Shown here piece by piece: positions 4,214-57,586 of a stretch of 64,000 bases of DNA (positions are counted from its first letter, which is position 1; the number at the start of each line of letters is the position of its first letter). This stretch comes from Candidatus Omnitrophota bacterium (GTDB taxonomy: Bacteria > Omnitrophota > Gorgyraeia > Zapsychrales > JANLHA01): the NCBI GenBank assembly GCA_963662715.1, contig OY759724.1, positions 730,662 to 794,661 of the forward strand, given 5' to 3'. The translations under genes were made by a program, and so were the position numbers. The notes below the pieces were generated by a model, which saw nothing but the letters and a program-made list of their open reading frames with translations, was not told where the DNA came from and made no database searches.

Positions 4214-4603
4214 TTACGCAGGAGAGGCCGCGGGAGCATATTTTCCTTTGCCAAAAAATTCCACTAATTTTTCAGCGTAAAATTTGACAAATTTCCGCTC
4301 ATCAAATTTTATCGGATCAACAATCTTAACACCTACCCGGTAAAGCAACGGATAATCCGTCGGCCGGCCTTTTTCCTGTTCAACCCGTACGATTTTCGCA
4401 TGAAGTTCAATTTTCATATTAATCGGCAGTAAAAGAAACATCAGGAGTTCCTGCCGGATCTGCAGTTCTTCCGTTGTTATAAAAGCCACTCCCGTTCCGC
4501 TGATATCCAGCGTTGCCGTGTCGATGAGTTTTTTTCGGGGGGGAACCCTGAAGCTCATCGGAATTTCAAGTTTCATCCGGTGATATCGTCTTTTATCTGA
4601 CAT
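4214..4603 (-). CDS. PilZ domain protein (c-di-GMP receptor)
   Basis: 129 aa with RRYHR (RxxxR) and DISGTG (D/NxSxxG) PilZ signature motifs. Confidence 0.75.
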   Translation of the reverse strand: MSDKRRYHRMKLEIPMSFRVPPRKKLIDTATLDISGTGVAFITTEELQIRQELLMFLLLPINMKIELHAKIVRVEQEKGRPTDYPLLYRVGVKIVDPIKFDERKFVKFYAEKLVEFFGKGKYAPAASPA

Positions 4604-18000: not shown

Positions 18001-19741
18001 CAACTAATTGGGGGACCGCCATCTCGGCCTCAGGCCCGATATCCTCAATAACATGCAGAAGGGGCGTCACAACATTCCGCCAGGTGAAGAGCTGGGAAAT
18101 CTCTAAATATTCGAACATCTCCTCAAGAATATCCTGCCTGACAGGACGAATCCGTCCCAATAAATAAATGGCTTTCTCCCTTTCGAAGCGCTCGTTGAAC
18201 CAAGGGCTTAACAATTTGCGTAACTGGGACACAGCCGGTTCTCCGATCTCTTCCAATCGGCGCAGCAAAACCAAATCCTGCAGCCAGTTTTCTCCTTTAA
18301 TCCCCTGAATCAGGTCATTGATCTCCTTTTCCTGGTCAGTATATTTCATCCTCACGATTTGAGTCGTATGAAAAAGCTGTGACTGGAAATCCTGGACAGC
18401 GTTCTGGGGCAGGGCGTCAGGCCCGGAGGAAAACACCCCTAACGCAGATAAAAGGATGGTCAAAGCTCTTTTCAGCCTTCCGGGTTTTGAGAATACATTA
18501 CGGCCGGCATTTTCCACCAGTGCTACCCTCACCCGGCGGTTCTTTCCTTTCTCCGACTCAGGCTGCGTGATCGCCGAACTCACGCGTCCCGGCAGCCGGC
18601 CCGGCTGGCCGCGCAAGACCTCCAGCTTGTCCACCGTCACAACCCCCACGCCCAACCCCCCGGAAAAATATTTCCGCGGTATCACCTGCTGCGTCGCTTC
18701 ATCGTAATCTTCCCGTATATAGTTGTAGACGCCTTGCTTGAACGCGTCCAGATACTGCTGGTATATCTTCTCTTTTATCTCCCTGTCCTCAACATCGATC
18801 CCCTTCACCCTGTTCCGGTCCATGTACACCTGGCCCAATAAACTGTCCCGCAAATTCTTCTTGTACCAGGTCGCCAGGATCATTGAGTTGTAGATCTGCC
18901 GCAAATTCGCGAACGTCTGCCCTTCATTCACTTCCTTCTCTATCGCCGGAAGGATAATATCCTTGACGATCTTTGAGGACAGTTCATTCAGCTCTTTGGC
19001 CTGCCCCTTTGACTGTTTGTGCAACCCCAGGTCTTTGCTCTGCAGATTATGCTCCAAGGCCAGATAATCCTCTTCCAGCATCACCTTCAAGTGCCGTTCC
19101 ACCACAAACGCGCTGCCCGCGTGCTCATAGACAACCGCCTTATCCGGCACGATCCATACCTTATTAAATGTGTTTACCGGGATATTCGTTGTGCCGTACA
19201 GCTCATAGGCCTTTTTATAGACTTTACTCCAGAACGCCTGGCCCAGTTCTTCTTCCGGATACATCAACGAAGCGGTGAGCTGTTTCAGCAGGTAATCCTG
19301 GGAGAGCATGTCCTTGCCCATTTCCGTAACGCCCAACCCTTCCGGGATGATCCGGTTGTTTTCATATGGCGATAAGTTGACCCACAGTTCGTCTTCAGGG
19401 ACCGTCAAAGCCGCCAGGAAATACTTGATCAGCCTCTGTGACTCGGCTTCAAAAGAGGCTCCTTTTAAATCCCTGTCTCCCGTATCAATAATGAAATCAA
19501 ACTGCAGAGGGTTGTCCGGATGGATGGTGAGCCCCCGCAGGATCGCCGGCGCGAATGTCTCGCTGATCGAAAGGATCGTCCCGGGCTGCGGCAGAGAGAA
19601 GACAGCGGCACGCTCTTCTTTGGCCCACCCCGGTGTCGGCATAAGGACGGACGACAATAAAAAGACCGCCGCCATACCCGCCGATAAAAAGCGGCGCGGG
19701 ATTGTTTTCAATTTATGATTTGTCGGCTTATGCCTATTCAT
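15080..19741 (-). CDS. giant secreted HEAT-repeat protein, paralog 1 (shared N-terminal ~380 aa domain + conserved C-terminal ~60 aa domain)
   Basis: 1553 aa; signal peptide (LSAGMAAVFLLSSVLMPTPGWA); N-domain nearly identical to gene at 19779..28091; central PBS-lyase/HEAT-like repeats; C-terminal GGIDFNPAALDLQIKRDGQGVPLPL...GFQPVIIQISPINIPL motif shared with two paralogs. Confidence 0.85.
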   Translation of the reverse strand: MNRHKPTNHKLKTIPRRFLSAGMAAVFLLSSVLMPTPGWAKEERAAVFSLPQPGTILSISETFAPAILRGLTIHPDNPLQFDFIIDTGDRDLKGASFEAESQRLIKYFLAALTVPEDELWVNLSPYENNRIIPEGLGVTEMGKDMLSQDYLLKQLTASLMYPEEELGQAFWSKVYKKAYELYGTTNIPVNTFNKVWIVPDKAVVYEHAGSAFVVERHLKVMLEEDYLALEHNLQSKDLGLHKQSKGQAKELNELSSKIVKDIILPAIEKEVNEGQTFANLRQIYNSMILATWYKKNLRDSLLGQVYMDRNRVKGIDVEDREIKEKIYQQYLDAFKQGVYNYIREDYDEATQQVIPRKYFSGGLGVGVVTVDKLEVLRGQPGRLPGRVSSAITQPESEKGKNRRVRVALVENAGRNVFSKPGRLKRALTILLSALGVFSSGPDALPQNAVQDFQSQLFHTTQIVRMKYTDQEKEINDLIQGIKGENWLQDLVLLRRLEEIGEPAVSQLRKLLSPWFNERFEREKAIYLLGRIRPVRQDILEEMFEYLEISQLFTWRNVVTPLLHVIEDIGPEAEMAVPQLVDLYDSYATPNLVLVYDPSDALVAIGEASVPSLMAYLDKETRSKRIFFPTRADFEVRQIVDPINTLERIGSGASQSLPLLKEIYGRVKSFKIKKSIISASATIDPFAAIPLWHHIFSGDVTGMKSEALRKLRVHYDQRVADYLKKNFDITLEPGIQSRTVEAKAKDSGTEEASEKDTYFDYRNLRHPDPDIRRITLESIRVRLNFPVSLRSDHKKELTDMMLITLLDENFAVRNEAYGILEALYNPQQADNLYYVEADERLSETQWPAEIAIYYSQKRRAFMAEGQDRALPEDLSVAQQLMGNMQLRIRISGEGWMNSQSMTQLLSHYSEEAKKDHFRQYISKDFLYRANEDTFDKIFTVFMSYAPADVSPVLEEALDHSDPEIALGAALTFSYMGEQEYAQKAVPFLIARLKEKLKDNADSWKAPRPGLRYINDSDYSDMILALGRIGLANDEITATLDEFLQDSFMRRSFGEEIIIAYADMASQGAAVGPNVFNIYSKWIYNDDFLRKKLHDALRVTRFTEAGPVLLNRFRNFKKGANCRSLVLALIDFGYYEESDVAGMFRALAPSDEKFLDVVAGANSIEAGLRKAVTHRSDEVQKRAYEIIAEAGPGLKSMASFLYDWYADHPELGVKTAEALYGIGETVKAAQVASEVLLQGDTPELRIKAAQFFIELGPDHRETIPSLIIAAHNDPSYYLGGSFGTVRDYWVRIMANNALTIIVMNPDSPQYYLSQAYFNGGIADIIALIHHWPQANKLEKEAILAMLASDQHKDFAKNYIKDKLRSEGQRTRASRTLYLPLLEAIEKAEKDGWDRLKEFWRGDLQRREGETRLAESEDQHKTQLAAGYPEDKQQPLDEGSDGEHRSSPIMQSLEENAAIEDIGGIDFNPAALDLQIKRDGQGVPLPLLQQPVKSMNIEGFQPVIIQISPINIPLFLGMSESPENPSTAASLSPLFPQADVQEKFLPNVQDNLSRLN
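18545..19697. repeat. direct repeat copy A (~1.15 kb, ~97% identical to 26911..28047) covering 5' coding region of giant paralog 1
   Basis: Visible nucleotide near-identity; identical antisense ORFs in track (18456..18707 vs 26776..27063; 19308..19718 vs 27664..28104). Confidence 0.85.
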
Positions 19742-19778: not shown

Positions 19779-22700
19779 TTAATTCAGCCAGCTGATATCT
19801 TTTTCACGGCCGGCATAAAATTTTTCCCGGCTGTCAGACGGTAAGGCTGACCGCCTTGTCGCCGAAGGAGGACTTTCTTCCGGCCCCTCCTCAGTTAAAC
19901 CTAACAATAAAGGAATATTCACCGGCGCGATGTTAATGATAACCGGCAAAAACCCGTCAATTCTCATATCACCCACCGGCTGCTGCGGCAAAGGCAGCGG
20001 CACGCCCTGGCCGTCCCGCTTGATCTGCAGATCAAGTGCGGCCGGGTTAAAGTCAATACCGCCTAACGGCGAAGAGGCCGGTTCAGGTTCTTTCCCCAGT
20101 TCATAGCGTTTAATCTCCTGCCGATAGTCCCTGGCCCTGTCCTGATAAAACCAGCGCTCGGACAAGACCACGGAATCCACGTCCACGTCTCCCCAATGTT
20201 CATAGCGAATATCTTCAATGGCTTTTAAAAGGATCTCCGGTTCATCTCCGGTTAAATCTTCAACAATCCAGCCAAAAGTCGCATGAGCGACAAACGGATC
20301 AAACTTTGGGCCCTTTTGCGTCATATCAAAAAATTGATCCTGCAGGCCCTTCACTTCATCCCGGGCATTGTCCGTCATTAACATCGGGATAAAAATGGCT
20401 TTGCCCTGAAACATGCCTATCCCCTGAGCCATGAATTTAAAGGCACCGACCCGCCCCGGGATAAGCTGATCAAGCACAGCCACGGTTTCCTCTGTCACTT
20501 GCTCTTTCTGCCGGGGATCAGTCGTAAAATATGTCACTGAAGCATACGGCAGCGAGGGCACATCCCAGGCGATCTTATCAATGATCGATTGGGGAAGACG
20601 CGCCTTAAGCGCTTCCTGCGCTTTGGCCATGATCGCCTCCGGCATATTAAAATGCAAGAGATGTTTTAATTCCTCCTCCATCATCCTTTGGTCTTTCTGC
20701 ACGGGCGTTCGTAAGGCCTCCTGCCACTTCTGTTCAAAGATATCCCAGCTGGCCTGATATTCCGGAAGGATGGCGACCGGAGAACTTGCAGTATCAAAAC
20801 TGTCAGTAATATTAATGACCTCGGCCTTATCTTTTTGATGTATTGCGCTTGATACATTTTCATTTAACCGTTTTGTCCATTCGGCATATTCTTCTTCATA
20901 CCCTTGTCTTGTCGCATTAGGTATTCTGTGCTCACCTATAACTTCAGTATCTCTTCCCCACGTTTGGTTTTCCGGGCCGGCACCTTCATTAGGATCCCAT
21001 AAGATTGGGAATACAAGTTCTTCTGGCTCTCTGGCAATACGATCCAGAAGGGCTTCCATGGCCCTTTTGTATAATTTTACTGCGGAAGCACCTCTATATC
21101 CCCGACCCCATAAAATATCAGAAATAATTTCGAGTCTCATATCAGGATATCTCCGGTGATGGGTGTCGATAAACTCCACGATTTCATCTTCTGTGACACC
21201 CCCTGTTCTTAAAATTTCTTCAAGAGCGACAAAAGTTTCCTTGTTCCTCAGAAAATCTTTGATCTCAAATAGAGAACGAAGGGTTTCTCTGTCTTCAACC
21301 TTCCCCAATGCTTGCATAGTCCATATTCTCGAACTCAATGGGGCCTCATAAAAACCTTCACTATATTGACTTGCTCTTAGATAAGCACCCGCCAATTCCG
21401 CCTCAGACACTTCTAATGTTTTTAATGCTTGATCCACTGCTTCTAAAAGGTCAATATCCGCCTCGGAAAACATTTTCAGCAATACCGGGACAGCCTTCTT
21501 TACGCGTAAATTTTCCAACACTTTAACAGCATTTAATTTTGCGGATTTCCCTTTTCCTTTCTCAAGGATACTTATGTAAGTGTCAATAAGATCTGAGAGG
21601 GCCACCCCCAATTTGTTCAAGGATGATTCCACCGCCTTTATCAACGGCTCGTCATCCTCATAAAGCAATCCTGTGAGAACTTCAATCGCCCCTTTATTAT
21701 CTAAATCAGCTGAATCTCCCAACAAATCTCCTAAAGTACGGACCGCCCTAAGCCTGGCGATTCCTTTTCCTTTCTGTGCCGCCATAATATAGGCCTTTAC
21801 TAATTTTTCTTTTGTTACGCCTAACTTTTCCAGGACTCCTTCAACGGCATTTAAAATCACTTTATTTTCTTCTGACAATAAATTCAATAAAGGTTCTGCC
21901 GCGTTTCCCTTATGGGAATCAGCAATAAAATCAAGAATACTCAGTCTCACAGAGTCGGGGACCTGATGGTTGGCAAGTATTTTATATAATACGTCATCTA
22001 TTCCTGCGGTATTCAACAAGACTGAAAGTATCGGTTCTTTCCTGTCGGAGTTTATTATCATCCCCGTTAAAATTTTCACGGCGGAGACCAAAGGAAGCTC
22101 TTTAGCTATTTCTTTTATTTGATCGTCACGGATATCTTCTCTAAGGACTACAAGAATCTCCTCTGCTTTATAGGCATGCGTTGTTTTAGGATTTTTAAGG
22201 ACTCTGATCAAATGCGGTATTATTTTAGCGCCATAACCTATCATTCTTTCCTTTGACAGTTTATTGTAATAATCATTACTATCAATTCTTAACAAATGGA
22301 CATTGCCTCGCATCGTATGAAGTCTCCAAAACTTGTATATCTTCCAAGCCGCTGTTAACGCTATCGCCCCGCCGATCGTGTACTCATTGATCAGTCCCGC
22401 CTCGGTCAAAGGCCGGGTGAAAGACAAATCGACAGTTTGTCCGTTTGCGACAGATAACAAACCGCCGTTTAAAACGCCGGCGAGGGTTATCGGCGAACTT
22501 TGCAATTCGGAATCAGCTGTCACCACCGGAGAAGAAACAGGACTGTCTGACGTACCGGTTTGCACCAATTCTATTCTTTCTGGAATAACGCTGACAAGTT
22601 CATCCCGTGCCGGCTCTATTACTTTTACTTGATCCCATGCCTCAACCCATCTCGTCTTTCTGGGCATTGTATAACCGGAAACATAGGAGACATCATCATA

Positions 22701-25700
22701 ATCCTCATATTCATCCAAATAGCCCTCATGATGAATCGTCTCGGTCACCGCCTCATGATGTTTGTGTTCCGTCTTTTCCGGCCGGTAATTCACCATAAAA
22801 TTATCACCGGATAAAACAATTTCTAATCCTTCGATGAAAAACGCGGCAACCTTATTCTTCGGCAATATCGCATTAAGACTCGCATAGGTTCGGTTGACGG
22901 CTAATGTTCGTGCATCGGTTAACCCATATATATTTGATATATGTATAAAGGCGTCTATAACACCTAAACTTGTTGCCTCGAACATAACATCATAAAGCGC
23001 ATCTAAAGCCTTGACGTCCGCCAGTTCCGCAAGTCCCCGGGCTATGCTTTCGGCATGATCTTTACTTCCCTGCAAGGCAGTGATAAGAGCCGTCACAAAC
23101 CGTCCCTTATCAACACCGGCATTGAGCAGATCCCGGCTGAATCCCGGTCGTGAAAAAAGTGTCAACGCTCTTTCCAAATTAATAACTTTTATAGCCTTGA
23201 TATTCAAATCTTCAAGATATTCATCAAGTCGGGACAGGCCAAACGCCCCTTCTTCATGCTGTTTTAAAATCCGCAAGTAATCCGCCAGCCCCGCCCGGGT
23301 ATTCAGGCCCAAAGACTGCAGGAAAGACAGCACGTCCGCCCTAATGATATAAAGGTCTTCTCCGTCCTTTTCCCTGGCCAGGATATCTTCACCTAAACGC
23401 ATATACCTGTCATCAGCCGTCTCTCTCAAGTATTCGGCCAATCTTCTTACCGCGTGTCTCTTAAGGTTATAACCGGCGCCCGGATACGGCTGATCAACCC
23501 ACTCTACAAGTATGCCTGCAAAACTCTCCTCATCTCTCATTCGTATAATATCCAACAGTTCCGCCTCTAAAACTCTCATCTGTCCAGGAGTCGGAGATCT
23601 CAGATTTCTTGCCCACTGGATATATGTTTGAAGGTCTCCCTGAACGCCGAACCGCTCCAAAGCAAGCATAAATAAGACACGGTTTTCCGGCGTAACAGCT
23701 TCATTCAAACGCGATTCCAGAAGCGGGACAGCCGTCTTTCTGTTGAGTCCGGCTGTTATTTGAATAGCCGCGTCACGGTCAACAGCATTAGTGCTCCTTA
23801 ACAGGGATTCCAGGCTCCCCAACCTTCTCTTTCTTATAACAGTATCCGTTATTTGGGCAACCACCGCCGGTTCTGACAACAATCGATACAAGTCCTTTTT
23901 GTCGAGACTTTTTACCCGTCTTAATCTTTCGCCCTCGGGCGCCGGCTGCACTTCTTCGATGTCTTTAAAAGCTCCCGGCATACGGTTCAATGTCCTTATG
24001 ATCCGTCCATAATCTTCTCTGGTCGAGCAACCCAATGATTGCAACATTTCATCCGCCGCTTCCCTGATAACGACAATTTCCGCTGATTGTTCTCCCTCGC
24101 CAATGGCTCTATCCTTGCCGAACTTATCAAAGAGGGGCTGCCGGTTTTCTGCCTGAAGTTCAAACATCCTTCCCACGGCAAATATTCTCATTGCTTGATC
24201 AACGTCATCCCCCAACCATGCTGTTAAAAGGCTTTTATAGTTTTCCTGATCATATTCCTTTAAAACATCCATCCCCTTAAAGACCTGCTCAGGAATACGC
24301 CCTGCGGAAGCTTCATGCACTCCTTGCAGCCACTCCAATAAAGCCGGGACGTGCCCCTGTTGACCAAGCCGCGCTAAAATATAATTCAAGAGGACACGCA
24401 TGCCTGCATCGTTTTTTGCCTTTATCAATAAAGGTTGCAGAAGCGGGATCGCAGCCCGCATATTTAAATGGGCAATGAGGTTTAACGCAAAAACATGAAT
24501 ATCCCTGTCAGGATGATCCAGTAAGGACCTGATATGGTATAAAGTAAAGTCCCCTGCAAGACTGGTTAATGATTCCAATATGCTCTCTTTAACAGCGGCC
24601 CCCCGGTGATCTCTGTCTAATCTGAAGCGGAAATCATACAACAAAGAAATCAACGGCAAAATAGCCTGTTTGCTTTGATATATTCCCATACCTTTAATGG
24701 CGTCCATGATTTCAGAATAATTATCAGTTAAATCAAGGCCTTTCTTTGTCACACGGAGAAGAATTCTTCTATACACTTCAGCTTTTTCTTCATCACTCAA
24801 ATCATATTGCTCCAAGAGTTTTCTTTTGGCCTTATACCTTGTCCAGGAATAAGAACCATCCAAGCCATAAAACGCACCGCGCTTTGTTGTGTGCCGCCAT
24901 AATCCCCATACCGTCCCCAGCCCCCCGGCGGCTATCGCAGCCCCGATGGAATAAGCATTAATGAACTCTGCGCCGGTAACCGGAGAACTGACATACTTCT
25001 GCCCTTCCTCTAATAATGGAGAAACAAAAGACAGGTCGACTTGCTGTCCTTTAGCAATGGAAGTGAATCCATTCTTGAGCGCCCCGGCAATAGTCCCGGG
25101 GATAAAACCGGACAGGTTAATACTTGTGATTCCCGATGAAACGCGTTGAATATCCGCGGCTGTCATCTTTTCCACCGGGTAAACGTTGCCTTTCAAGTCG
25201 CGATAAAACGGGTTATCTCTTTCCACCGCTTCTTTAATGCGTTTCATCTGCCTGTTCAGGCTTCTGGGAACAAAGATGTCTCCCCGTCTCCCCGCCCACT
25301 CCGGCAGTAACTGTTCATTCATCAGGCGAAGGTTAAGAATAATACCATGCTCTTTCGCAACCTGATCAAAAAGCGAAAAAAACAACTCATAGCCAATGAG
25401 ATTGACAATATAACGAATTTTACGCATATCAAATTCATCTAATGAAACTGGTTCTCCAAAAGTCGAAAAACTGGTTTTTCGATCAATCAGCTCCCGCACT
25501 TCCGCAAACTCTATCCAGAATTGGCTTGATTCAACAAACTTACCAATTAAATCCTGAACCGTCTTCAAATAAGTGTTCATGTCCGAGGTCGAAGTTGCAA
25601 TGCGGTAAGTTTCGGATATGCCGGATTCTTCCAGCTTTTCTTTAACACGCGCTCCCAATGCCTGATAAAAATCTCGGCGGGCCTGCTCCAGCCTCCGGGT

Positions 25701-28091
25701 TTCTTCTCTTGTCAACCGCACTTGACTTTGCCTGCCAAGAGAAGACGGTTCTGCAACTTTGGCAATAATGTTCAACTCAGGTATCTTTAGATCTTGTTCG
25801 GGCAAAATATTAACAGGAAGCATTTCTAAAGCGGGTTTATTTTGTTGGCTCTGATGATAATCGTCCAGGAGTTCCCGCGTCACTATCAAATAAAAATTCT
25901 GGTATTTATCCACCGCAATGGCCTGCACCGGATAACGTTTAAACCCGTCCGGACCTTGTGTATAAAAATAATCCTTAATCCCTTCTGCGGCATAATCTGT
26001 GGTTAAATCAGTAAAAGAAAAGATTATTTTTCGATCACTTAAATTAATCTCCGTAGCAGCTACCAGCTTTTTGTTCGTATCACGCACGCCTACTGTAAAC
26101 ATCAACTCCTTCATACCTAATTGCGACGTCTGCCAATGTATTGAAAGATATTTATTATTAAATTCGATTAATCCATACTGCCCCTGCGGGTCCTGCACGA
26201 CATTCACCCCTTGTTGTTTTTCCAATGCTTGGGCGAGCTGGGTGTAAAGATTCTTGACCTTCCCCTCTGCCGAAATCGCCGAGGAAGCATTGTCAGGTGG
26301 GATAGGAGTAGATATCGATATAACCGAAATTCTTTCCGGGATAACGACTTTTTCTTCATCCATTTTTTGTAGCATTAACGATCCGGTAACATATCCATCA
26401 GTATGATCCTCTCCTTCTCCGACAATTACATATCCAGGAGGGATAGAAGATCGGTCCACGGTTTCACCATTGCTAATGGCGGCAGATCCATAACTTATTC
26501 TTTCCCCGGGAATATATTGTATTTCTTCTTTTTCAGGAATATACTCAACTTTAAAATCATTCCCTCCTTTTCTGATCTTCCAGGCCTCATGAAGATGCCT
26601 TAAAACTTCGTCATCAGCTTTTAATTTTGTCGATTTTCCTTCCAGCACTTGTTGAACTCTTCCCCTCAAATCCTCCTCAACTTGAAAAAGATTTATGACG
26701 ATAGGATCATCTTTAGCTGTTAATTTCAAGTTAGATAATGCTGTGTTAACTCTTTGAATATTCGAACTCCCAAGCTTGAATAAATTCCAGCTAATATATA
26801 ACCGCTTTAATATCGGGGAAGAACTCCCTTCTGTTGGGGATAAATCATCCAACCCTTTATCTGCATTCTCAACCAGCTCGATGCTCACCCGTCTGTCCTT
26901 ACCCTTCGTCGACTCAGGCTGCGTGATCGCCGAACTCACGCGTCCCGGCAGCCGGCCCGGCTGGCCGCGCAAGACCTCCAGTTTGTCCACCGTCACAACG
27001 CCTACGCCCAACCCCCCGGAAAAATATTTCCGCGGTATCACCTGCTGCGTCGCTTCATCGTAATCTTCCCGTATATAGTTGTAGACGCCTTGCTTGAACG
27101 CGTCCAGATACTGCTGGTATATCTTCTCCTTTATCTCTTTGTCTTCAACATCGATCCCCTTCACCTTGTTCCGGTCCATGTACACCTGGCCCAATAAACT
27201 GTCCCGCAAATTCTTCTTGTACCAGGTCGCCAGGATCATTGAGTTGTAGATCTGCCGCAAGTTCGCGAACGTCTGCCCTTCATTCACTTCCTTCTCTATC
27301 GCCGGAAGGATAATATCCTTGACGATCTTTGAGGACAGTTCATTCAGCTCCTTGGCCTGCCCTTCTGACTGTTTGTGCAACCCCAGGTCTTTGCTCTGCA
27401 GATTGTGCTCTAACGCCAGATAATCCTCTTCCAGCATCACCTTCAAGTGCCGTTCCACCACAAACGCGCTGCCCTCATGCTCATAGACAACCGCCTTATC
27501 CGGCACGATCCATACCTTATTAAATGTGTTTACCGGGATGTTTGTCGTGCCGTACAGCTCATAGGCCTTTTTATAGACTTTATTCCAGAACGCCTGGCCC
27601 AGGTCCTCTTCCGGATACATCAACGAAGCGGTGAGCTGTTTCAGCAGGTAATCCTGGGAGAGCATGTCCTTGCCCATTTCCGTAACGCCCAACCCTTCGG
27701 GGATGATCCGGTTGTTTTCATATGGCGATAAGTTGACCCACAGTTCATCTTCGGGGACCGTCAAAGCCGCCAGGAAATACTTGATCAGCCTCTGCGACTC
27801 GGCTTCAAAAGAGGCTCCTTTTAAATCCTTGTCTCCCGTATCAATAATGAAATCAAACTGCAGAGGGTTGTCCGGATGGATGGTGAGCCCCCGCAGGATC
27901 GCCGGGGCAAATGTCTCGCTGATCTTAAGGATCCTCCCCGGCTGCGGCAGGGAGAAGACAGCAGCCCGCTCTTCTTTGGCCCACCCCGGTGTCGGTATAA
28001 GGACAGACGACAATAAAAAGACCGCGGCCATGCCGGCCGATAAAAGGCGGCGGAATATAATATTCGACTTTGTTATAAATAACTCAAACAT
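19779..28091 (-). CDS. giant secreted HEAT-repeat protein, paralog 2 (2770 aa)
   Basis: Same N-terminal domain and C-terminal domain as paralogs; many HEAT-like repeats; two internal duplicated Gly-rich hydrophobic segments; stop only 37 nt upstream of paralog 1 start (operon). Confidence 0.85.
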   Translation of the reverse strand: MFELFITKSNIIFRRLLSAGMAAVFLLSSVLIPTPGWAKEERAAVFSLPQPGRILKISETFAPAILRGLTIHPDNPLQFDFIIDTGDKDLKGASFEAESQRLIKYFLAALTVPEDELWVNLSPYENNRIIPEGLGVTEMGKDMLSQDYLLKQLTASLMYPEEDLGQAFWNKVYKKAYELYGTTNIPVNTFNKVWIVPDKAVVYEHEGSAFVVERHLKVMLEEDYLALEHNLQSKDLGLHKQSEGQAKELNELSSKIVKDIILPAIEKEVNEGQTFANLRQIYNSMILATWYKKNLRDSLLGQVYMDRNKVKGIDVEDKEIKEKIYQQYLDAFKQGVYNYIREDYDEATQQVIPRKYFSGGLGVGVVTVDKLEVLRGQPGRLPGRVSSAITQPESTKGKDRRVSIELVENADKGLDDLSPTEGSSSPILKRLYISWNLFKLGSSNIQRVNTALSNLKLTAKDDPIVINLFQVEEDLRGRVQQVLEGKSTKLKADDEVLRHLHEAWKIRKGGNDFKVEYIPEKEEIQYIPGERISYGSAAISNGETVDRSSIPPGYVIVGEGEDHTDGYVTGSLMLQKMDEEKVVIPERISVISISTPIPPDNASSAISAEGKVKNLYTQLAQALEKQQGVNVVQDPQGQYGLIEFNNKYLSIHWQTSQLGMKELMFTVGVRDTNKKLVAATEINLSDRKIIFSFTDLTTDYAAEGIKDYFYTQGPDGFKRYPVQAIAVDKYQNFYLIVTRELLDDYHQSQQNKPALEMLPVNILPEQDLKIPELNIIAKVAEPSSLGRQSQVRLTREETRRLEQARRDFYQALGARVKEKLEESGISETYRIATSTSDMNTYLKTVQDLIGKFVESSQFWIEFAEVRELIDRKTSFSTFGEPVSLDEFDMRKIRYIVNLIGYELFFSLFDQVAKEHGIILNLRLMNEQLLPEWAGRRGDIFVPRSLNRQMKRIKEAVERDNPFYRDLKGNVYPVEKMTAADIQRVSSGITSINLSGFIPGTIAGALKNGFTSIAKGQQVDLSFVSPLLEEGQKYVSSPVTGAEFINAYSIGAAIAAGGLGTVWGLWRHTTKRGAFYGLDGSYSWTRYKAKRKLLEQYDLSDEEKAEVYRRILLRVTKKGLDLTDNYSEIMDAIKGMGIYQSKQAILPLISLLYDFRFRLDRDHRGAAVKESILESLTSLAGDFTLYHIRSLLDHPDRDIHVFALNLIAHLNMRAAIPLLQPLLIKAKNDAGMRVLLNYILARLGQQGHVPALLEWLQGVHEASAGRIPEQVFKGMDVLKEYDQENYKSLLTAWLGDDVDQAMRIFAVGRMFELQAENRQPLFDKFGKDRAIGEGEQSAEIVVIREAADEMLQSLGCSTREDYGRIIRTLNRMPGAFKDIEEVQPAPEGERLRRVKSLDKKDLYRLLSEPAVVAQITDTVIRKRRLGSLESLLRSTNAVDRDAAIQITAGLNRKTAVPLLESRLNEAVTPENRVLFMLALERFGVQGDLQTYIQWARNLRSPTPGQMRVLEAELLDIIRMRDEESFAGILVEWVDQPYPGAGYNLKRHAVRRLAEYLRETADDRYMRLGEDILAREKDGEDLYIIRADVLSFLQSLGLNTRAGLADYLRILKQHEEGAFGLSRLDEYLEDLNIKAIKVINLERALTLFSRPGFSRDLLNAGVDKGRFVTALITALQGSKDHAESIARGLAELADVKALDALYDVMFEATSLGVIDAFIHISNIYGLTDARTLAVNRTYASLNAILPKNKVAAFFIEGLEIVLSGDNFMVNYRPEKTEHKHHEAVTETIHHEGYLDEYEDYDDVSYVSGYTMPRKTRWVEAWDQVKVIEPARDELVSVIPERIELVQTGTSDSPVSSPVVTADSELQSSPITLAGVLNGGLLSVANGQTVDLSFTRPLTEAGLINEYTIGGAIALTAAWKIYKFWRLHTMRGNVHLLRIDSNDYYNKLSKERMIGYGAKIIPHLIRVLKNPKTTHAYKAEEILVVLREDIRDDQIKEIAKELPLVSAVKILTGMIINSDRKEPILSVLLNTAGIDDVLYKILANHQVPDSVRLSILDFIADSHKGNAAEPLLNLLSEENKVILNAVEGVLEKLGVTKEKLVKAYIMAAQKGKGIARLRAVRTLGDLLGDSADLDNKGAIEVLTGLLYEDDEPLIKAVESSLNKLGVALSDLIDTYISILEKGKGKSAKLNAVKVLENLRVKKAVPVLLKMFSEADIDLLEAVDQALKTLEVSEAELAGAYLRASQYSEGFYEAPLSSRIWTMQALGKVEDRETLRSLFEIKDFLRNKETFVALEEILRTGGVTEDEIVEFIDTHHRRYPDMRLEIISDILWGRGYRGASAVKLYKRAMEALLDRIAREPEELVFPILWDPNEGAGPENQTWGRDTEVIGEHRIPNATRQGYEEEYAEWTKRLNENVSSAIHQKDKAEVINITDSFDTASSPVAILPEYQASWDIFEQKWQEALRTPVQKDQRMMEEELKHLLHFNMPEAIMAKAQEALKARLPQSIIDKIAWDVPSLPYASVTYFTTDPRQKEQVTEETVAVLDQLIPGRVGAFKFMAQGIGMFQGKAIFIPMLMTDNARDEVKGLQDQFFDMTQKGPKFDPFVAHATFGWIVEDLTGDEPEILLKAIEDIRYEHWGDVDVDSVVLSERWFYQDRARDYRQEIKRYELGKEPEPASSPLGGIDFNPAALDLQIKRDGQGVPLPLPQQPVGDMRIDGFLPVIINIAPVNIPLLLGLTEEGPEESPPSATRRSALPSDSREKFYAGREKDISWLN
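26911..28047. repeat. direct repeat copy B covering 5' coding region of giant paralog 2
   Basis: See copy A. Confidence 0.85.
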
Positions 28092-29748: not shown

Positions 29749-31365
29749 TTATTGTGCGGCTCCGGAGAGAGAGACATTCTCGATTTTAAAGGGCATCTCA
29801 TATTTCTCCGGATTTTCATGGACTTCTAAAACAATTCTGCCCGTCTCCGGGAATGTGCCTTGGGACAAAGTGAAATGATAGGTTGTCTCCCCGCCCATGG
29901 AACTATAACCCTGCGAGACTTGTAAAGGCCTGTCGTCAGGGCCGAAAATTTTAACCGACTCCACCCGTTCCGGAGAGAGGCTCACCTCCACGTTCATTTG
30001 TTGTTTTCCCGGCTCCCATTCACTGTCCTGAATCGAAACGATTTTCGCCCCGTAAGACGTCCCCTCGGCCCCGGGAGTGAAGGAGCTTATCTGCAAATCC
30101 TTTTCCCGCATACCGGAGGCCACAATATACTCCAGGACACCGGAAACTTCCCGGATGCCTTTCACGGCCGCAGAAGGTTTTTCCAAAGTCACTTCAAAAA
30201 CGGTGAACTTCTTGTCTTTCGAAACATGAGGAAAATTGATGTTGCGGGACCACTCATTTTTCGGCAGAAGATTCTCCCCGTTATCAGCCAGGGCCGTTGT
30301 CAATGCGCCGCCGGTCACTTTAATGACTTTATCCGGGAGATCCCCGATGACCGCCAGGGTGTAACCTTCATCATAGTTAAAGGGCCGGACCTCGTTCTCC
30401 ATGTCGGAAAAAGCGACAAGCCTGACCCCTCCGATCCTAAAGGACCCCGGCGCTCTTTCGAGCTTTTTCTTTTCCATAACGCCCAGGTCCTTTAAAACAG
30501 CCGCCGGCATCCCGCCTGCCGCAGAAACTTCCTTATTGTAGTCAAACAAAGGTTCGCCGACATCAACAATCGCTTTTACCGGAGCATTCTGTCCGAACAA
30601 TTTTTCGTTCAGCATATTATCATCTTCGGGTTTGTCCTTAAACGGATTGCGTCCGGCCTGAATCTCTGCGCGCATCCACTCTTCGTCATTGAACAGGCTG
30701 TCCATGACAGACAACAATTTCTCTCCTGAAAAATGAAAAAGGAGGCTGCTGTCCTGAGCCGTTTCTAAATTCATGGTTTTAACGACTGCCCCGGGCAGGT
30801 AAAAGGTCCGCTTAATCTTGAATTCGGAAAGAACGCCCGCCATCATGACCCGTGTTTTATCCATCTCGGCCTGTATCTCCTGAATCTTTTCCGCCACCTC
30901 GCTTTCTGACAACGGCGACTGTTCCTCTGTTTCAGAAGAATCTTCTTCCTCTGCTTCGCTGGACGTGATATTTAAAATAAGCTGTCCGCCCTTCGGCAGG
31001 ATTTCTATCCGGTCAAACAAATTAAACGACATCCCCCCGTTGTGGAATTTTAACTGCGACACATCCCTGAAATAAGCCGTGCCTTGAAATATCAGCTTAT
31101 CATTTCCATCCAGACTGAACGAAATATCTGTCCAGGCATCCACGCCTTGAGCTTTCTCCAGTTCTTCTTTTACACAATGTTTCATTTGTTTTTCCGGATC
31201 ACTGTCCTGTCCGGGGAAACCCAAGTTCATCATAGGGATCACGGATTTATGAAGGACTTTACCCGAACCGTCCGGATTAACCGTGTAAGTTTCCTCGATA
31301 TTCAGACAGCCCGAGACCGCGATCAGAAGGAAAGCAAGCGTGACCGCCTTGACCAGATTATTCAT
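29749..31365 (-). CDS. hypothetical lipoprotein
   Basis: Start chosen at ATG 31363-31365 (AAAGGTGGA RBS) giving lipobox signal MNNLVKAVTLAFLLIAVSGC; acidic Ser/Glu-rich linker; no known domain. Confidence 0.6.
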   Translation of the reverse strand: MNNLVKAVTLAFLLIAVSGCLNIEETYTVNPDGSGKVLHKSVIPMMNLGFPGQDSDPEKQMKHCVKEELEKAQGVDAWTDISFSLDGNDKLIFQGTAYFRDVSQLKFHNGGMSFNLFDRIEILPKGGQLILNITSSEAEEEDSSETEEQSPLSESEVAEKIQEIQAEMDKTRVMMAGVLSEFKIKRTFYLPGAVVKTMNLETAQDSSLLFHFSGEKLLSVMDSLFNDEEWMRAEIQAGRNPFKDKPEDDNMLNEKLFGQNAPVKAIVDVGEPLFDYNKEVSAAGGMPAAVLKDLGVMEKKKLERAPGSFRIGGVRLVAFSDMENEVRPFNYDEGYTLAVIGDLPDKVIKVTGGALTTALADNGENLLPKNEWSRNINFPHVSKDKKFTVFEVTLEKPSAAVKGIREVSGVLEYIVASGMREKDLQISSFTPGAEGTSYGAKIVSIQDSEWEPGKQQMNVEVSLSPERVESVKIFGPDDRPLQVSQGYSSMGGETTYHFTLSQGTFPETGRIVLEVHENPEKYEMPFKIENVSLSGAAQ

Positions 31366-31579
31366 AATGTCCACCTTTCTGAAGAATAGTCCAATTAATG
31401 AAAAAAAGCCTTTAGGCAAGCATTTTTCGTTCATTCACGGCCTGGAACCGGCCGGACACCTTTTCATCTTAACAATAGTGATGCCCTGTGTCTACGGGAA
31501 AAAAAGACATTTACCCGCTGTTTTCTTTGGCGGTAACTTCATTATCCTCAACATATTATGAAAACAAATCTGCTGGTCT

Positions 31580-31608
31580 TTGCTGCTGGCAAAACCCGGT
31601 TTTATATT
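31580..31608 (+). promoter_or_regulatory. candidate sigma70 promoter (-35 TTGCTG, 17-nt spacer, -10 TATATT) driving riboswitch leader
   Basis: Sequence pattern only. Confidence 0.3.
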
Positions 31609-31629
31609 TTATACTTTATATTAGATATA

Positions 31630-31767
31630 GCGGACTGAACGATAAAGGCAAAACCGGTGTAAACCGGTGGCGCAAAGCTATAGGGTCCTTCAAAAGGATA
31701 GCCTGGCTGCCGAAGAAGTCAAAGAAAACAGGCTTATTCCTTATTGAGGGGATGAGCCTGTTTTTTT
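31630..31767 (+). promoter_or_regulatory. c-di-GMP-I (GEMM) riboswitch candidate with intrinsic-terminator expression platform
   Basis: AAAGGCAAAACC then palindromic hairpin ACCGGU-GUAA-ACCGGU (GNRA loop) then GGCGCAAAGC then second hairpin (GGGTCCTT.AAGGATAGCC) and closing TGCC pairing with GGCA; followed by 10-bp stem ACAGGCTTAT/ATGAGCCTGT + TTTTTTT at 31727..31767. Confidence 0.55.
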
Positions 31768-31852
31768 GGCCAAACGAGGTCAAAGGCCAAAACAGGAATA
31801 CAAAAGCTCTGTGACCACTTTTCAGCCGGGTCTGCCTAGAAAGGAGACACTT

Positions 31853-32086
31853 ATGCAACGAATGAGATGGGCGGCTCTAATCCTCTTGATGGTGATTTCT
31901 CCGTCTTTGGGACAAGCGGAAATGCTGGCAAAAACCTCCGTGCTTAACAAACCACAGAAACAAGAACAGGTCGTTAAGAAAAAAGGCGCGATGATCAAAA
32001 TCGGAAGTGTGCCTTACAGTAAAGACGGAGTGCTGAGAAAAGGAGCTGCGCTTAAAATAGGCTCCTATCCTTTGACCGAAAGTTAA
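31853..32086 (+). CDS. small secreted protein with two KGAxIKIGSxP repeats (riboswitch-controlled)
   Basis: AGGAGA RBS 7 nt before ATG 31853; signal peptide MQRMRWAALILLMVISPSLGQA; 77 aa; followed by terminator. Confidence 0.55.
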   Translation: MQRMRWAALILLMVISPSLGQAEMLAKTSVLNKPQKQEQVVKKKGAMIKIGSVPYSKDGVLRKGAALKIGSYPLTES

Positions 32087-32122
32087 TGAACACGTATTAG
32101 AACTTGGACGATAAATCATAAA

Positions 32123-32171
32123 GGCCGGTAGAGATCTTGCCTCTTGCTGATCTGCTGCCGGCCTTTCTTCC
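32123..32171 (+). terminator. Rho-independent terminator
   Basis: GGCCGGTAG...CTGCCGGCC stem followed by TTTCTTCC. Confidence 0.55.
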
Positions 32172-53286: not shown

Positions 53287-54240
53287 CTATTGTTTTGCCA
53301 GGAGCTGCCGGGTTATATCGACCGCTGATTTCAGCACATACTCCGCAGCACGTCTGTTGGTATGATACCCTGATGTCCTTGTTGTTCTTTGCCGGATCAC
53401 CAAAACAGTAACGTCATTCTCGGATTTATGCTCCAGGGTGAGTCCCCGGGGGGGATTCCGGATATGGTCCTTCATGTCATGAAAAAACCGGGAGGACTTT
53501 GCGATAAGCACACAATACAAATACGGATAATCGGTGCCCTGAACGGTGTTCATGGAAATCTGAACCTGCAGCCCTAAGAATTCTTTCGGCGCAGGGAAAA
53601 ATCTCAACATAAGCCGGGCATCCGTAGGGACCTTTTTGCCCTCTTTTGTCCTCCGGGTCGCCAGCATCGGCAGAACCTGCACGTCACTGGGCGCAGATAA
53701 AAACCGCATCATACCTTCCAATAATTTTACTTTTATAATCAGCCGGTCCTTTTTCAAAAAATCCCGGACCCCGACAAACCAATGCGGGGCAAAAACCACG
53801 GCCGAATCCCACGCCCAATAGCCTGCCAGGACCTCATTTCCCTGCATCACAAAATGGAACCAGACAGCAGCACAGCCCAACGCACATCCCGCGAAACAGG
53901 CAACGCCCAAGGGATTCGTGATATCGAAACAATCCAGGTCCCACTGCTGCAGTTGTTTTTGTTTAAGCTGAATCTTTTGATATTCATCCGGCGTGACCTG
54001 GGACCAGTCCTCCGGCCCCCTGACCGATGGACGGGCCGAATAGCCTTTGATCAGAGTCAGCCCTGTCGCAAAGGCCAGAAACGCCAGACCCAGCCAGAAA
54101 TTGATAAACAGCTGCGCCGTAAGTCCCAGCCCGAAAAGCGCCAAAACAATCTTTATGCGCAATAAATAAGGCCAGCTTTTTGCGAAAAGAAAATGGATAT
54201 CCCCCTGTCGCTGAGGATCAGGAAAAAGTTTCACGAACAA
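53287..54240 (-). CDS. hypothetical membrane protein (third gene of rSAM/SPASM operon)
   Basis: 317 aa, N-terminal TM helices; start overlaps rSAM stop by 10 nt (translational coupling). Confidence 0.5.
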   Translation of the reverse strand: MFVKLFPDPQRQGDIHFLFAKSWPYLLRIKIVLALFGLGLTAQLFINFWLGLAFLAFATGLTLIKGYSARPSVRGPEDWSQVTPDEYQKIQLKQKQLQQWDLDCFDITNPLGVACFAGCALGCAAVWFHFVMQGNEVLAGYWAWDSAVVFAPHWFVGVRDFLKKDRLIIKVKLLEGMMRFLSAPSDVQVLPMLATRRTKEGKKVPTDARLMLRFFPAPKEFLGLQVQISMNTVQGTDYPYLYCVLIAKSSRFFHDMKDHIRNPPRGLTLEHKSENDVTVLVIRQRTTRTSGYHTNRRAAEYVLKSAVDITRQLLAKQ

Positions 54241-55562: not shown

Positions 55563-55576
55563 CTCGTTCCCTGCTG

Positions 55577-57259: not shown

Positions 57260-57388
57260 GGGGCTTGCGTCTCGTTTTGACAATGTCATTATTATACCGG
57301 CCCCGCCTTTCCGTGTCTAGCAGTCATCCCAAAACCTGTGCGGGACCGGCCCAAGCCCGGGAAGACAGAATAAAACCCCGGCCGCTAT

Positions 57389-57416
57389 GTCTTTTCAATT
57401 TGTTATTTCGTTGTTA
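57389..57416 (+). promoter_or_regulatory. candidate promoter with extended -10 (TGtTATAAT) for B12-binding radical SAM gene; ~170-nt leader
   Basis: ttttca-17 nt-TATAAT with TG motif; sequence pattern only. Confidence 0.3.
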
Positions 57417-57586
57417 TAATACAAGTTCACAACCGAAATACAACCGTTTCTCGCGCAAAGCATCCTGGCTCAAAAATCAGCCTGATATCATCAACCGAAC
57501 ACATTCCGGGACCTTTGCGTTCCTCGACAGAGAATCTTAAAACTTCCTTTGGGTTTAGGAAGAATAATGACAACACCGGACAGACC

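Follow-up and report, generated by a model that had tools for sequence, protein, structure and literature searches.

A 64-kb stretch of DNA assigned to a Candidatus Omnitrophota bacterium, the whole of which is referred to here as the window, carries a genuine but ordinary c-di-GMP riboswitch. The aptamer is a canonical class-I element of the receptor-less, GYRA-tetraloop GEMM form, and lies 137 nt 5' of the ATG of a 77-aa open reading frame (ORF) on the same strand, with a terminator and a predicted antiterminator in between. The explanation that we favor overall, on the strength of folding models, is that this class-I riboswitch probably exerts OFF control by termination, possibly with a second, translational tier, over a monocistronic gene for a presumably secreted protein. 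Because the riboswitch class, its ligand, and control by termination are all textbook, the locus leaves existing knowledge unchanged. Its interest is that of a direct c-di-GMP-dependent handle on an orphan, presumably secreted mini-protein in a candidate-phylum genome; to our knowledge, c-di-GMP outputs are essentially unstudied in genomes of this kind.

Aptamer fold and class

The only match above a gathering score returned by Rfam cmscan in the whole 64-kb window was to RF03167 (c-di-GMP-I-GGC), at 31638-31715 on the plus strand (65 bits against a gathering score of 59, E 4.3e-13). A further, overlapping clan match lay above its own gathering score and was very probably RF01051 (gathering score 35). 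RF03167 places the aptamer above gathering within the c-di-GMP-I clan (CL00126). Our own covariance model, R1, gave 80.1 bits. A sequence-only reading of this DNA had proposed a c-di-GMP-I (GEMM) riboswitch, and the proposal was borne out by this clan match together with covariation-consistent pairing; its expectation of a covariance-model score above gathering held at the level of the clan, but the best model was RF03167 and not RF01051. A permissive Rfam scan of the leader added nothing beyond noise, and a mir-7445 match on the terminator hairpin, which scored 24 bits where gathering is set at 79, was discarded as such. The elements of the aptamer were as follows.

31632..31720, plus strand: c-di-GMP-I (GEMM-I) aptamer including the predicted P1 extension (Rfam match and constrained fold)
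31648-31656, plus strand: GGCAAAACC (read from the sequence)
31648..31673, plus strand: first hairpin, closing pairs G31648-C31673 and C31649-G31672 (model alignment)
31653-31668, plus strand: first-hairpin core ACCGGU-GUAA-ACCGGU, with the 6-bp stem ACCGGU/ACCGGU
31659-31662, plus strand: GUAA (GYRA-type) tetraloop of the first hairpin (sequence and model alignment)
31669-31678, plus strand: GGCGCAAAGC (read from the sequence)
31676..31708, plus strand: second hairpin (P2 in the original GEMM naming), apex GUCCUU-CAA-AAGGAU

All of the leader elements named beforehand (two motifs, a GNRA-capped hairpin, and a second hairpin) were located at 31648-31708. A second copy of GGCAAAACC is present at 31589-31597, 5' of the aptamer. 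When mapped from the model alignment, 20 of 20 stem pairs in the window were standard, and a constrained fold predicted a P1 extension, GGACU/AAGUC, joining 31632-31636 with 31716-31720. The hairpins are linked by AAA at 31674-31676, and P2 is short and without the 11-nt tetraloop receptor. The AAA linker and receptor-less GYRA loop fit the original description of GEMM, which includes an AAA linker, a GNRA tetraloop, and a receptor-less GYRA-loop subtype (PMC1950547).

Covariation was examined in an alignment of 112 related aptamers, which was fitted to the model and in which 95.6% of cells were paired, compared with 30-50% in slid controls. Compensatory changes on both sides were found for 18 of the 22 pairs, as the sequence-only reading required, and this level of covariation was reached by none of 500 shuffles. 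All 6 inner pairs of the first hairpin covaried, and 10 of 12 P2 pairs showed compensatory changes across relatives. Class-I aptamers contain an interhelical Watson-Crick C-G pair (PMC4744006), and C31671 and G31701 occupy its positions (C44-G83 in Vc2), where they would form the same tertiary pair; G31701 was invariant across 24 aligned aptamers (alignment A1).

Predicted expression platform

From the putative promoter to the start codon, the following features were located.

31586..31615, plus strand: putative sigma-70-type promoter, CTGGCA, 18-nt spacer, TATACT (consensus scan, 9/12)
31686..31705, plus strand: predicted antiterminator strand (P2 apex and P2 3' side), pairing with 31729-31751 over 8+5+6=19 bp
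31722..31767, plus strand: intrinsic terminator, 21-bp stem 31722-31742/31747-31767 with a 4-nt loop and U7 at 31761-31767 (fold)
31800..31845, plus strand: pre-Shine-Dalgarno (pre-SD) segment, complementary to 31686-31726, the aptamer 3' half and linker (full-leader minimum free energy [MFE] structure)
31828..31851, plus strand: predicted SD-sequestering hairpin, GG-GUCU-G-CCU (31828-31837)/AGG-AGAC-A-CU (31842-31851)
31841..31847, plus strand: Shine-Dalgarno sequence AAGGAGA, ending 5 nt before the ATG (read from the sequence)

The putative promoter, a consensus match, would start transcription at about 31622-31625, just 5' of P1. A palindrome, AAAACC-C-GGTTTT (31591-31603), overlaps its -35 hexamer. 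A sigma-54 reading of TGGCA at 31587 was dropped, the spacing to the GC element being unfit.

The terminator folds clearly. Its core, ACAGGCUUAU...AUGAGCCUGU plus U7, spans 31728-31767, the stem extends to 21 bp, and the ATG follows 85 nt past the U-tract, close to the 90 nt or so originally claimed. It was missed by a simple terminator scanner, we think because its A-U pairs cause the U-tract to be counted as stem. The hairpin starts 14 nt past P2 and 2 nt past the extended P1, clear of the aptamer; the two are compatible, with a joint fold of -48.1 kcal/mol.

Folding of terminator and antiterminator alternatives, a check suggested by the earlier reading, recovered both. For nascent RNA spanning 31625-31752, the MFE structure was the antiterminator, at -39.7 kcal/mol compared with -23.2 kcal/mol when the aptamer was forced. 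The antiterminator duplex alone reached -25.5 kcal/mol, a value as low as which was found in 1 of 1000 shuffles (-12.0 +/- 3.0) and in 18 of 3745 other windows. Since complementarity of the terminator 5' arm to the P2 3' strand is an antiterminator layout, we infer an OFF switch, and thermodynamic prediction makes OFF through termination the probable direction of control. Without ligand, however, the terminator state (-56.8 kcal/mol) is stabler than the antiterminator state (about -40 kcal/mol), so that OFF logic would need a kinetic trap. In the nearest aptamer relative (L122), the aptamer, a separate terminator, the SD, and the ATG follow one another as they do here; its antiterminator complementarity alone was not significant (113 of 1000 shuffles as low).

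The aptamer strand is also complementary to sequence beyond the terminator. Predicted pairing of 31686-31726 with 31800-31845 encloses the terminator hairpin, and the duplex reached -34.3 kcal/mol by RNAduplex, as low as none of 1000 shuffles (-15.9 +/- 3.3) and 1 of 2781 other windows. When the downstream segment was folded alone or the aptamer was forced, the SD-sequestering hairpin arose instead, at a weak -9 kcal/mol or so. The predicted probability that the core SD (31842-31847) is unpaired was 0.01-0.15 with the aptamer forced, compared with 0.1-0.64 unconstrained; this difference is moderate, and the unconstrained ensemble still partly pairs the SD with coding sequence. The long-range complementarity is suggestive of an additional, translational level of control, which we regard as possible and put forward tentatively.

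In the favored model, binding of c-di-GMP would keep the two-hairpin aptamer (31632-31720) folded, which would let the separate 21-bp, U7 terminator (31722-31767) form and stop transcription about 85 nt before the start codon. At low c-di-GMP, 31686-31705 would pair with the terminator 5' arm and loop (31729-31751), and polymerase would continue past the terminator. In the resulting mRNA, this aptamer strand could then pair with the pre-SD segment (31800-31845); left free, the segment would fold over the Shine-Dalgarno sequence (31828-31837 with 31842-31851). Read-through and translation would thus both be favored at low c-di-GMP, making a coherent two-tier OFF switch. That the strand 31686-31726 serves two platforms in turn, as antiterminator and then as anti-sequestrator of the ribosome-binding site (RBS), in a coherent OFF gate on a lineage-restricted, Lys-rich, secreted mini-protein of a little-studied bacterium, is a more speculative and somewhat doubtful extension. 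As a compact system, the leader would lend itself to testing how one competing strand can control transcription and translation in series.

The same energies could describe an essentially constitutive terminator, an attenuator or leaky stop, with the aptamer acting only on the translation or the mRNA fate of the read-through fraction, by way of the long-range helix and the SD-sequestering hairpin. In every state the terminator far exceeds the antiterminator in stability, the long-range complementarity is both stronger and cleaner statistically than that of the antiterminator, and in the Bc1 riboswitch a terminator forms regardless of ligand (PMC11218506). Yet the 19-bp antiterminator is the MFE structure of the nascent RNA and improbable by chance, and the SD-sequestering hairpin, at about -9 kcal/mol, is weak; we therefore hold this scheme to be unlikely.

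Control could also run in the opposite direction, with c-di-GMP favoring read-through, translation, or both, as it does in the layout most frequent among GEMM elements; the protein would then be produced when c-di-GMP is high and could be a biofilm or matrix factor. In the original GEMM survey, the terminator often overlapped, with its 5' side, the 3' side of P2, giving ON logic (PMC1950547), and the long-range helix, whose duplex includes AAGGA at 31841-31845, would, considered in isolation, be compatible with a masked SD region in the unfolded state of the aptamer. Here, however, the distance of the terminator from P2 and from the extended P1 means that the bound aptamer and the terminator coexist, its 5' arm has antiterminator geometry toward the P2 3' strand, and forcing the aptamer predicts an SD that is more sequestered, not less. 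An ON switch is accordingly quite improbable, and the OFF model is retained below.

The 77-residue product and its genomic setting

The coding part of the locus comprised the following features.

31853..32086 including the stop codon, plus strand: 77-aa ORF, ATG at 31853 (called in two public assemblies)
31979..32017, plus strand: repeat 1, KKGAMIKIGSVPY, residues 43-55, KGAxIKIGSxP type
32036..32074, plus strand: repeat 2, RKGAALKIGSYPL, residues 62-74, KGAxIKIGSxP type
32121..32166, plus strand: terminator-like hairpin after the ORF, GGCCGG...CCGGCC then UUUCUU (inverted repeat I4)

With its good SD, signal-peptide-like N-terminus, and protein-level repeat, the ORF looks like a real gene. 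The N-terminus, MQRMRW / AALILLMVISPSL / GQA followed by E, fits by eye the Sec signal-peptide rule, which asks for a basic n-region, a hydrophobic h-region, and small residues at positions -3 and -1; the Sec signal peptide so predicted comprises residues 1-22 and would, by rule of thumb, be cleaved after GQA. The predicted mature part is 55 aa long, Lys-rich, and very basic (pI about 10). Repeats 1 and 2 are identical at 8 of 13 residues, and 5 of these 8 use different synonymous codons, including AGT versus TCC for Ser. The repeat has therefore been kept at the protein rather than the DNA level, which argues that the frame is translated. The hairpin at about 32121-32166 folds at -30.9 kcal/mol (z -3.45). 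The ORF, its two repeats, and its own terminator agreed with what had been read from the sequence. A TTG-initiated, 106-aa version of the ORF (31766) was rejected because its start lies inside the terminator U-tract.

The check for homologues downstream of GEMM elements in other genomes, suggested by the earlier reading, yielded none, as homologue searches returned nothing convincing. From 5.8 billion proteins, a word-indexed search retrieved the 77-aa protein alone; exhaustive phmmer against 1.84 billion representatives returned the protein and one weak, repeat-driven match; and Pfam gave no match even at E 10. A 1147-aa T9SS protein (E 3.6e-5, pairwise E about 5e-4) was rejected as a homologue, the match being too weak and driven by the repeats. 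A cluster look-up yielded neither names nor accessions. With no homologues, neither the gene nor its link to the riboswitch gains support from comparison. An AlphaFold2 single-sequence model, with a low-confidence N-terminal helix, was too poor for a fold search (mean pLDDT 61, pTM 0.20). If the favored model holds, the product would be a 77-aa pre-protein with a Sec-type signal peptide and a 55-aa basic mature part bearing two repeats, a factor that presumably resides in the periplasm or on the cell surface and is made in the non-sessile, low-c-di-GMP state; secretion and role are weakly indicated.

The locus has a single further copy (L001), which is 99.8% identical and shows no differences in the aptamer, platform, or ORF. 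By synteny through the neighboring beta-CASP/MBL gene, the best genome match was a Candidatus Omnitrophota MAG (60% identity), in which smpB adjoins the beta-CASP/MBL gene at the syntenic site, with no riboswitch and no small ORF there; the closest available genome therefore provides no orthologous leader for comparison. Genes downstream of related aptamers encode mostly pilins and signal-peptide proteins, some of them very small. The PilZ-domain protein reported from the window was present at 4214-4603 (Pfam PF07238, E 4e-11), with its strand corrected to minus.

It is likely that the aptamer controls the 77-aa ORF in cis. The terminated leader RNA, of about 140 nt, might instead be the main product, acting as a c-di-GMP sponge or trans-acting sRNA, with the ORF either silent or expressed separately. 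Bdellovibrio merRNA, a c-di-GMP riboswitch RNA that is expressed at a high level, is a precedent for such a role; moreover, an OFF-type platform yields plentiful aptamer-plus-terminator RNA when c-di-GMP is high, the terminator and the ORF lie 85 nt apart, and the ORF is an orphan. Against this, a consensus scan found nothing promoter-like in the stretch from the terminator to the ORF, strong complementarity links this spacer with the aptamer, and the ORF bears the signature of protein-level selection, which leaves a leader-RNA function very unlikely beside cis control of the ORF.

Binding-site bases and relation to known riboswitches

The bases expected to contact the ligand were located by model alignment.

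31647, plus strand: G, equivalent of Vc2 G20
31674, plus strand: A, equivalent of Vc2 A47 (the RF03167 consensus has G)
31710, plus strand: C, equivalent of Vc2 C92

In Vc2 numbering, G20, A47, and C92 are the ligand-contacting bases, with G20 contacting one ligand guanine (PMC5888326, PMC4744006) and C92 forming a Watson-Crick pair with the other (PMC5888326). Judged by these bases, the ligand of the window aptamer is very likely to be c-di-GMP. Of 121 pattern-matched metagenome aptamers, 119 likewise have A at the position-47 equivalent. Weinberg et al. (2017, PNAS) reportedly defined the GGC and UAU variants, and the defining base of RF03167 (c-di-GMP-I-GGC) we take, from the Rfam consensus, to be G in place of A at position 47. 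The window aptamer has A31674 where the model has a conserved G, and so lacks this mark of the variant. RF03167 was also the best model for 19 of 19 other A47 aptamers tested (60.9-78.8 bits), and the sole true G47 example (L074) scored in the same range. Since RF03167 is best for A47 aptamers generally, the "GGC variant" label is not diagnostic, and the match reflects architecture or lineage rather than an altered binding site. The cGAMP-selective GEMM-Ib RNAs of Kellenberger (2015) and Nelson (2015) are said characteristically to have A at position 20 (G20A), whereas 31647 is G.

A different ligand, either the unknown ligand of "GGC" variants or 3'3'-cGAMP as in GEMM-Ib, is suggested by RF03167 being the top Rfam family but is most improbable in view of the A at 31674, the G at position 20, the 19 other A47 aptamers with the same best model and L074-like scores, and published pipelines in which RF01051-type and GGC models recognize the same sequences (PMC9943018). 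As a practical warning, RF03167 out-scores the parent model for ordinary compact-type A47 aptamers, and altered ligand specificity should not be assumed from a "c-di-GMP-I-GGC" annotation unless position 47 has been checked.

Compared with Vc2 of Vibrio cholerae (RF01051), the window aptamer shares the P1-closed two-hairpin fold, the AAA linker, a GNRA tetraloop, the G20/A47/C92 equivalents, and the interhelical C-G positions. It differs in its short P2 without the 11-nt tetraloop receptor, in a GUAA rather than the native GAAA tetraloop, in a GGC bulge in the first hairpin where GAC is usual, and in its host, an Omnitrophota and not a proteobacterium or firmicute. With the RF03167 variant, a candidate class of altered specificity, it has the compact architecture in common, but not the G at position 47. 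Like c-di-GMP-I (GEMM-I) riboswitches, it lies in the 5' UTR of an exported-protein gene, export here being predicted.

Cd1, upstream of the flagellar operon of Clostridioides difficile, was reportedly described by Sudarsan et al. in 2008 as an OFF switch acting by termination. The window leader resembles it in having a class-I aptamer followed by an intrinsic terminator, with predicted termination at high c-di-GMP and a gene of the low-c-di-GMP lifestyle. Unlike in Cd1, the direction is a prediction, the target is a single orphan mini-protein and not a large operon, and a further 85 nt of spacer may add a translational tier. With Bc1 of Bacillus thuringiensis, whose platform acts on translation as well (PMC11218506), the leader has in common a long expression platform that affects both termination and RBS accessibility, here by prediction, for dual control of transcription and translation. 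Whereas Bc1 has two terminators and incoherent effects of opposite sign that yield little net response (PMC11218506), the window leader has one terminator and two predicted tiers of the same sign.

Aptamer identity and the RF03167 label

The sequence-only reading had proposed a c-di-GMP-I (GEMM) aptamer and a terminator ahead of a gene for a tiny secreted repeat protein. When the sequence was re-read, all of the elements named for the aptamer were found where they had been placed; the P1 extension and the AAA linker are added here:

31632-31636 with 31716-31720 (+): extension of the closing stem, P1 (fold)
31648-31656 (+): GGCAAAACC
31653-31668 (+): palindromic hairpin capped by GUAA
31669-31678 (+): GGCGCAAAGC
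31674-31676 (+): AAA linker
31676-31708 (+): second hairpin, P2

The sole Rfam match at gathering thresholds in the 64-kb window was to RF03167 (c-di-GMP-I-GGC) at 31638-31715 (+), which covered the full model length and established GEMM identity by covariance-model score (65 bits, with gathering set at 59; E 4.3e-13). A score short of gathering, which would have told against the proposal, was thus not what the scan gave. One further overlapping match of the same clan, above its own gathering score, lay beneath it in the scan; given the members of this clan and the RF01051 gathering score of 35, it is very probably the parent c-di-GMP-I model RF01051.

Mapping of the window onto the model columns gave standard stem pairs in 20/20 cases and identified G31647, A31674 and C31710 as the equivalents of the ligand contacts G20, A47 and C92 of the Vibrio cholerae Vc2 structure. 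One ligand guanine receives a Hoogsteen contact from G20 and the other is Watson-Crick paired to C92; A47 touches the ligand via its phosphate backbone (PMC5888326, PMC4744006). The RF03167 consensus has a conserved G after GACGC, whereas the window has A at this position. Since the three contact equivalents are G, A and C, with A where RF03167 has G, the aptamer is, as judged from sequence, a canonical c-di-GMP aptamer at its binding pocket. C31671 and G31701, the latter invariant in our 24-sequence alignment, stand where the class has its universally conserved interhelical C-G pair. As in the original GEMM description (PMC1950547), the AAA linker is accompanied by a GYRA tetraloop without the 11-nt receptor.

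For comparison, 120 metagenome loci were fetched by the pattern AAAGGCAAA-N6-GNNA-N6-GGCGCRAAGC; position 47 was A in 119 of their 121 pattern matches. Twenty of these loci, picked for a compact second hairpin, were scanned with Rfam. RF03167 was the best model for every compact A47 aptamer scanned (60.9-78.8 bits), outscored the parent RF01051 for ordinary compact-type A47 aptamers in 23 of 25 hits (20 loci, L010-L124), and nearly always had a lower clan match hidden beneath it. The single true G47 example, locus L074, scored 68.3 bits. Because A47 aptamers also score best with RF03167, and in the same range as L074, the label reflects the compact, receptor-less architecture and not the binding site. 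The variant class will be over-called by automated annotation, a warning that is one of the two most useful by-products of this analysis.

A covariance model was built from 24 aptamers, and 112 hits from 100 sources were aligned to it; the window scored 80.1 bits, without a second match. Stems were unconstrained Ns in the pattern used to fetch the loci. Standard pairs filled 95.6% of pair cells, compared with 30-50% when partners were slid by 1-3 columns, a paired fraction that is inflated by fitting the alignment to the structure, with the slid controls and compensatory counts still decisive. Both sides had changed in 18 of 22 pairs, and none of 500 shuffles reached any of the observed measures. 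The pairing is thus consistent with covariation.

The 77-aa product and its genomic setting

The small ORF and its own terminator-like hairpin, both part of the original proposal, were found:

31853-32086 (+): ORF of 77 aa, start codon at 31853
5 nt from the ATG (+): Shine-Dalgarno sequence AAGGAGA
3' of the ORF (+): terminator-like hairpin of the ORF itself (fold)

The N-terminus of the product is Sec-signal-like (MQRMRW, AALILLMVISPSL, GQA, then E), and the mature part of 55 aa contains 10 Lys and has a pI of about 10. Of the 13 residues in each of its two repeats, 8 are identical between them, and 5 of these use different synonymous codons (e.g., AGT vs TCC for Ser); such changes read as the signature of selection on the protein, not on the DNA. 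A low-confidence AlphaFold2 model consisted of a signal-peptide helix and short beta-hairpins at the repeats. Identical copies of the protein were found only in one NCBI contig of 3.36 Mb and in one ENA metagenome contig (L001), which is 99.8% identical over 3.7 kb with leader and ORF unchanged. Beyond these copies, exhaustive phmmer searching returned only a weak match to a repetitive T9SS protein, and a Pfam search of the 77-aa protein gave no match. First ORFs downstream of related aptamers mostly encode signal-peptide proteins, whether type IV pilin-like, Flp-like or of another kind, and some have only 50-83 aa. A small exported product is therefore in keeping with the class. Collectively, these data support the proposed pairing of a c-di-GMP-I riboswitch with a small secreted-protein gene, in which the riboswitch would control an orphan mini-protein predicted to be secreted.

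The T9SS match, P0002, is a 1147-aa CHU_C, Bacteroidota-type surface protein in which the repeat core of the 77-aa protein, G-x-x-[IV]K[IV]G-x-x-x-Y-x-x-x-G, is found in each ~77-residue repeat unit of residues ~300-700 (E 3.6e-5 with phmmer, about 5e-4 in the pairwise comparison). The common core may point to a beta-hairpin motif in both proteins or may be coincidental.

In soil and sediment metagenomes, many compact GEMM-I aptamers were seen to precede, with no gene between, those for type IV pilin-like proteins with GFTLIELLVV N-termini (L021, L027, L028, L031, L039, L041, L052, L068, L073, L083, L097, L100, L102 and others), and Flp-like pilins followed at L029 and L020. Two or three such aptamers occurred per contig at L010, L020, L025, L048, L050, L065, L082 and L094; some stood in tandem in one leader (e.g., L050, 162 nt apart) and others preceded successive secreted-protein genes (L010, L082).

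The small gene stands alone on the plus strand, with a minus-strand gene on either side. Its neighbors and other features of the window are as follows:

29749-31434 (-): upstream divergent gene, 561 aa from the listed ATG, no Pfam hits
other flanking gene (-): beta-CASP/MBL ribonuclease-like protein
4214-4603 (-): PilZ gene (PF07238, E 4e-11)
7808-13663, 15080-19741, 19779-28091, 46650-51500 (all -): four giant ORFs, 1553-2770 aa
51848-52669: PEP-CTERM-tailed protein
54231-59179: radical-SAM cluster (one with SPASM, one B12-binding)

The 561-aa ORF probably starts at the internal MNNLVKAVTLAFLLIAVSGC (about 31365; MNNLVK...), which has a good Shine-Dalgarno sequence and a lipoprotein lipobox, VSGC. 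The best genome match of the beta-CASP/MBL protein was in a Candidatus Omnitrophota MAG (60% identity), where synteny is not kept and the riboswitch is absent; as evidence of taxonomic placement this match is no more than a hint. The PilZ gene already noted in the window is real and lies on the minus strand. Its product was the only c-di-GMP-related protein seen; the window ORFs scanned, those of at least 150 aa outside 7808-13663, 15080-19741 and 46650-51500, yielded no GGDEF, EAL or HD-GYP domain.

Several of the window's proteins are giants nearly devoid of recognizable domains, and such very large products of unknown function are a notable feature of this segment of the genome; the 2770-aa ORF, the only giant scanned, gave one HEAT_2 match. 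The PEP-CTERM and radical-SAM region, 20 kb from the riboswitch and with no obvious link to it, may serve in peptide maturation or modification. Four of the 5 leader-side differences between the window and L001 cluster within 11 nt (31407-31417). Two of these, G31408 to A and C31417 to T, compensate each other as a base pair within a small hairpin, GCC-TTTA-GGC. This hairpin has an A-run on one side and a T-run on the other and lies in the intergenic stretch ahead of the divergent 561-aa gene. The segment TGCTGGCAAAACCC (31584-31603), which holds a second GGCAAAACC copy, recurs within the ORF at 31923-31936 with 93% identity. The -35 hexamer of a putative promoter shares bases with a palindrome, AAAACC-C-GGTTTT (31591-31603), which might be bound by a protein or might have arisen by chance.

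Predicted control of the leader

The terminator expected in the leader was present upstream of the ATG at 31853:

31722-31742 with 31747-31767 (+): intrinsic terminator hairpin, 21 bp, with a U7 tract ending at 31767 (fold)

In the folding model, this is a strong intrinsic terminator. It was not listed by a simple terminator scanner, probably because its A-U pairs cause the U-tract to be counted as stem. The hairpin begins 14 nt past P2, just beyond the extended P1, and folded aptamer and terminator are therefore compatible (-48.1 kcal/mol together in a constrained fold).

The P2 apex and 3' strand (31686-31705) are complementary to the terminator 5' arm and loop (31729-31751) over 8 + 5 + 6 = 19 bp, which in these models is classic antiterminator geometry. 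For a nascent transcript that stops at 31752, this pairing was the minimum free energy structure (-39.7 kcal/mol; forcing the aptamer to fold gave -23.2). The duplex, at -25.5 kcal/mol, was matched by 1/1000 shuffles (-12.0 +/- 3.0) and 18/3745 other windows, while the aptamer 5' half, as control, had no notable complementarity in the same test. The nearest aptamer relative, L122, has the same element order; its antiterminator complementarity is not significant alone (as low in 113/1000 shuffles). The riboswitch is most likely, on these predicted folds, an OFF switch acting via termination: bound c-di-GMP would lock P2, allowing the terminator to form, and without ligand the antiterminator would form and transcription would read through. 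Since the terminator state is favored thermodynamically with or without ligand (-56.8 kcal/mol), the decision must be kinetic.

In full-leader folds, the aptamer 3' half and linker (31686-31726) pair with 31800-31845; the resulting helix is long and interrupted, and the terminator hairpin lies within it. The RNAduplex energy, -34.3 kcal/mol, was reached by 0/1000 shuffles (-15.9 +/- 3.3) and 1/2781 other windows. With the aptamer forced, the released segment 31828-31837 is predicted to fold locally onto the Shine-Dalgarno side (31842-31851), and the unpaired probability of the core bases 31842-31847 is 0.01-0.15, compared with 0.1-0.64 unconstrained. The pre-Shine-Dalgarno segment CAGCCGGGUCUGCCUAGAAAGGAG was also seen to resemble the P2 5' strand and apex, AGCUAUAGGGUCCUUCAAAAGGAU. 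Under such two-tier control, c-di-GMP would cause termination and mask the ribosome-binding site in escaping transcripts; without it, read-through would occur and the free aptamer strand would keep the anti-Shine-Dalgarno segment off that site. We regard this second tier as possible but somewhat doubtful, because only a weak hairpin (about -9 kcal/mol) would do the sequestering and orthologues for a conservation test are lacking. The leader, as a neat candidate for control in two serial tiers, is the other main by-product.

The predicted layout differs from the commonest GEMM arrangement, in which the terminator overlaps the P2 3' side and ligand turns expression ON (PMC1950547). Dual control by a long expression platform is known, including in the c-di-GMP-I riboswitch Bc1 (PMC11218506). 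However, the two effects in Bc1 are of opposite sign, whereas the two tiers predicted here would be coherent.
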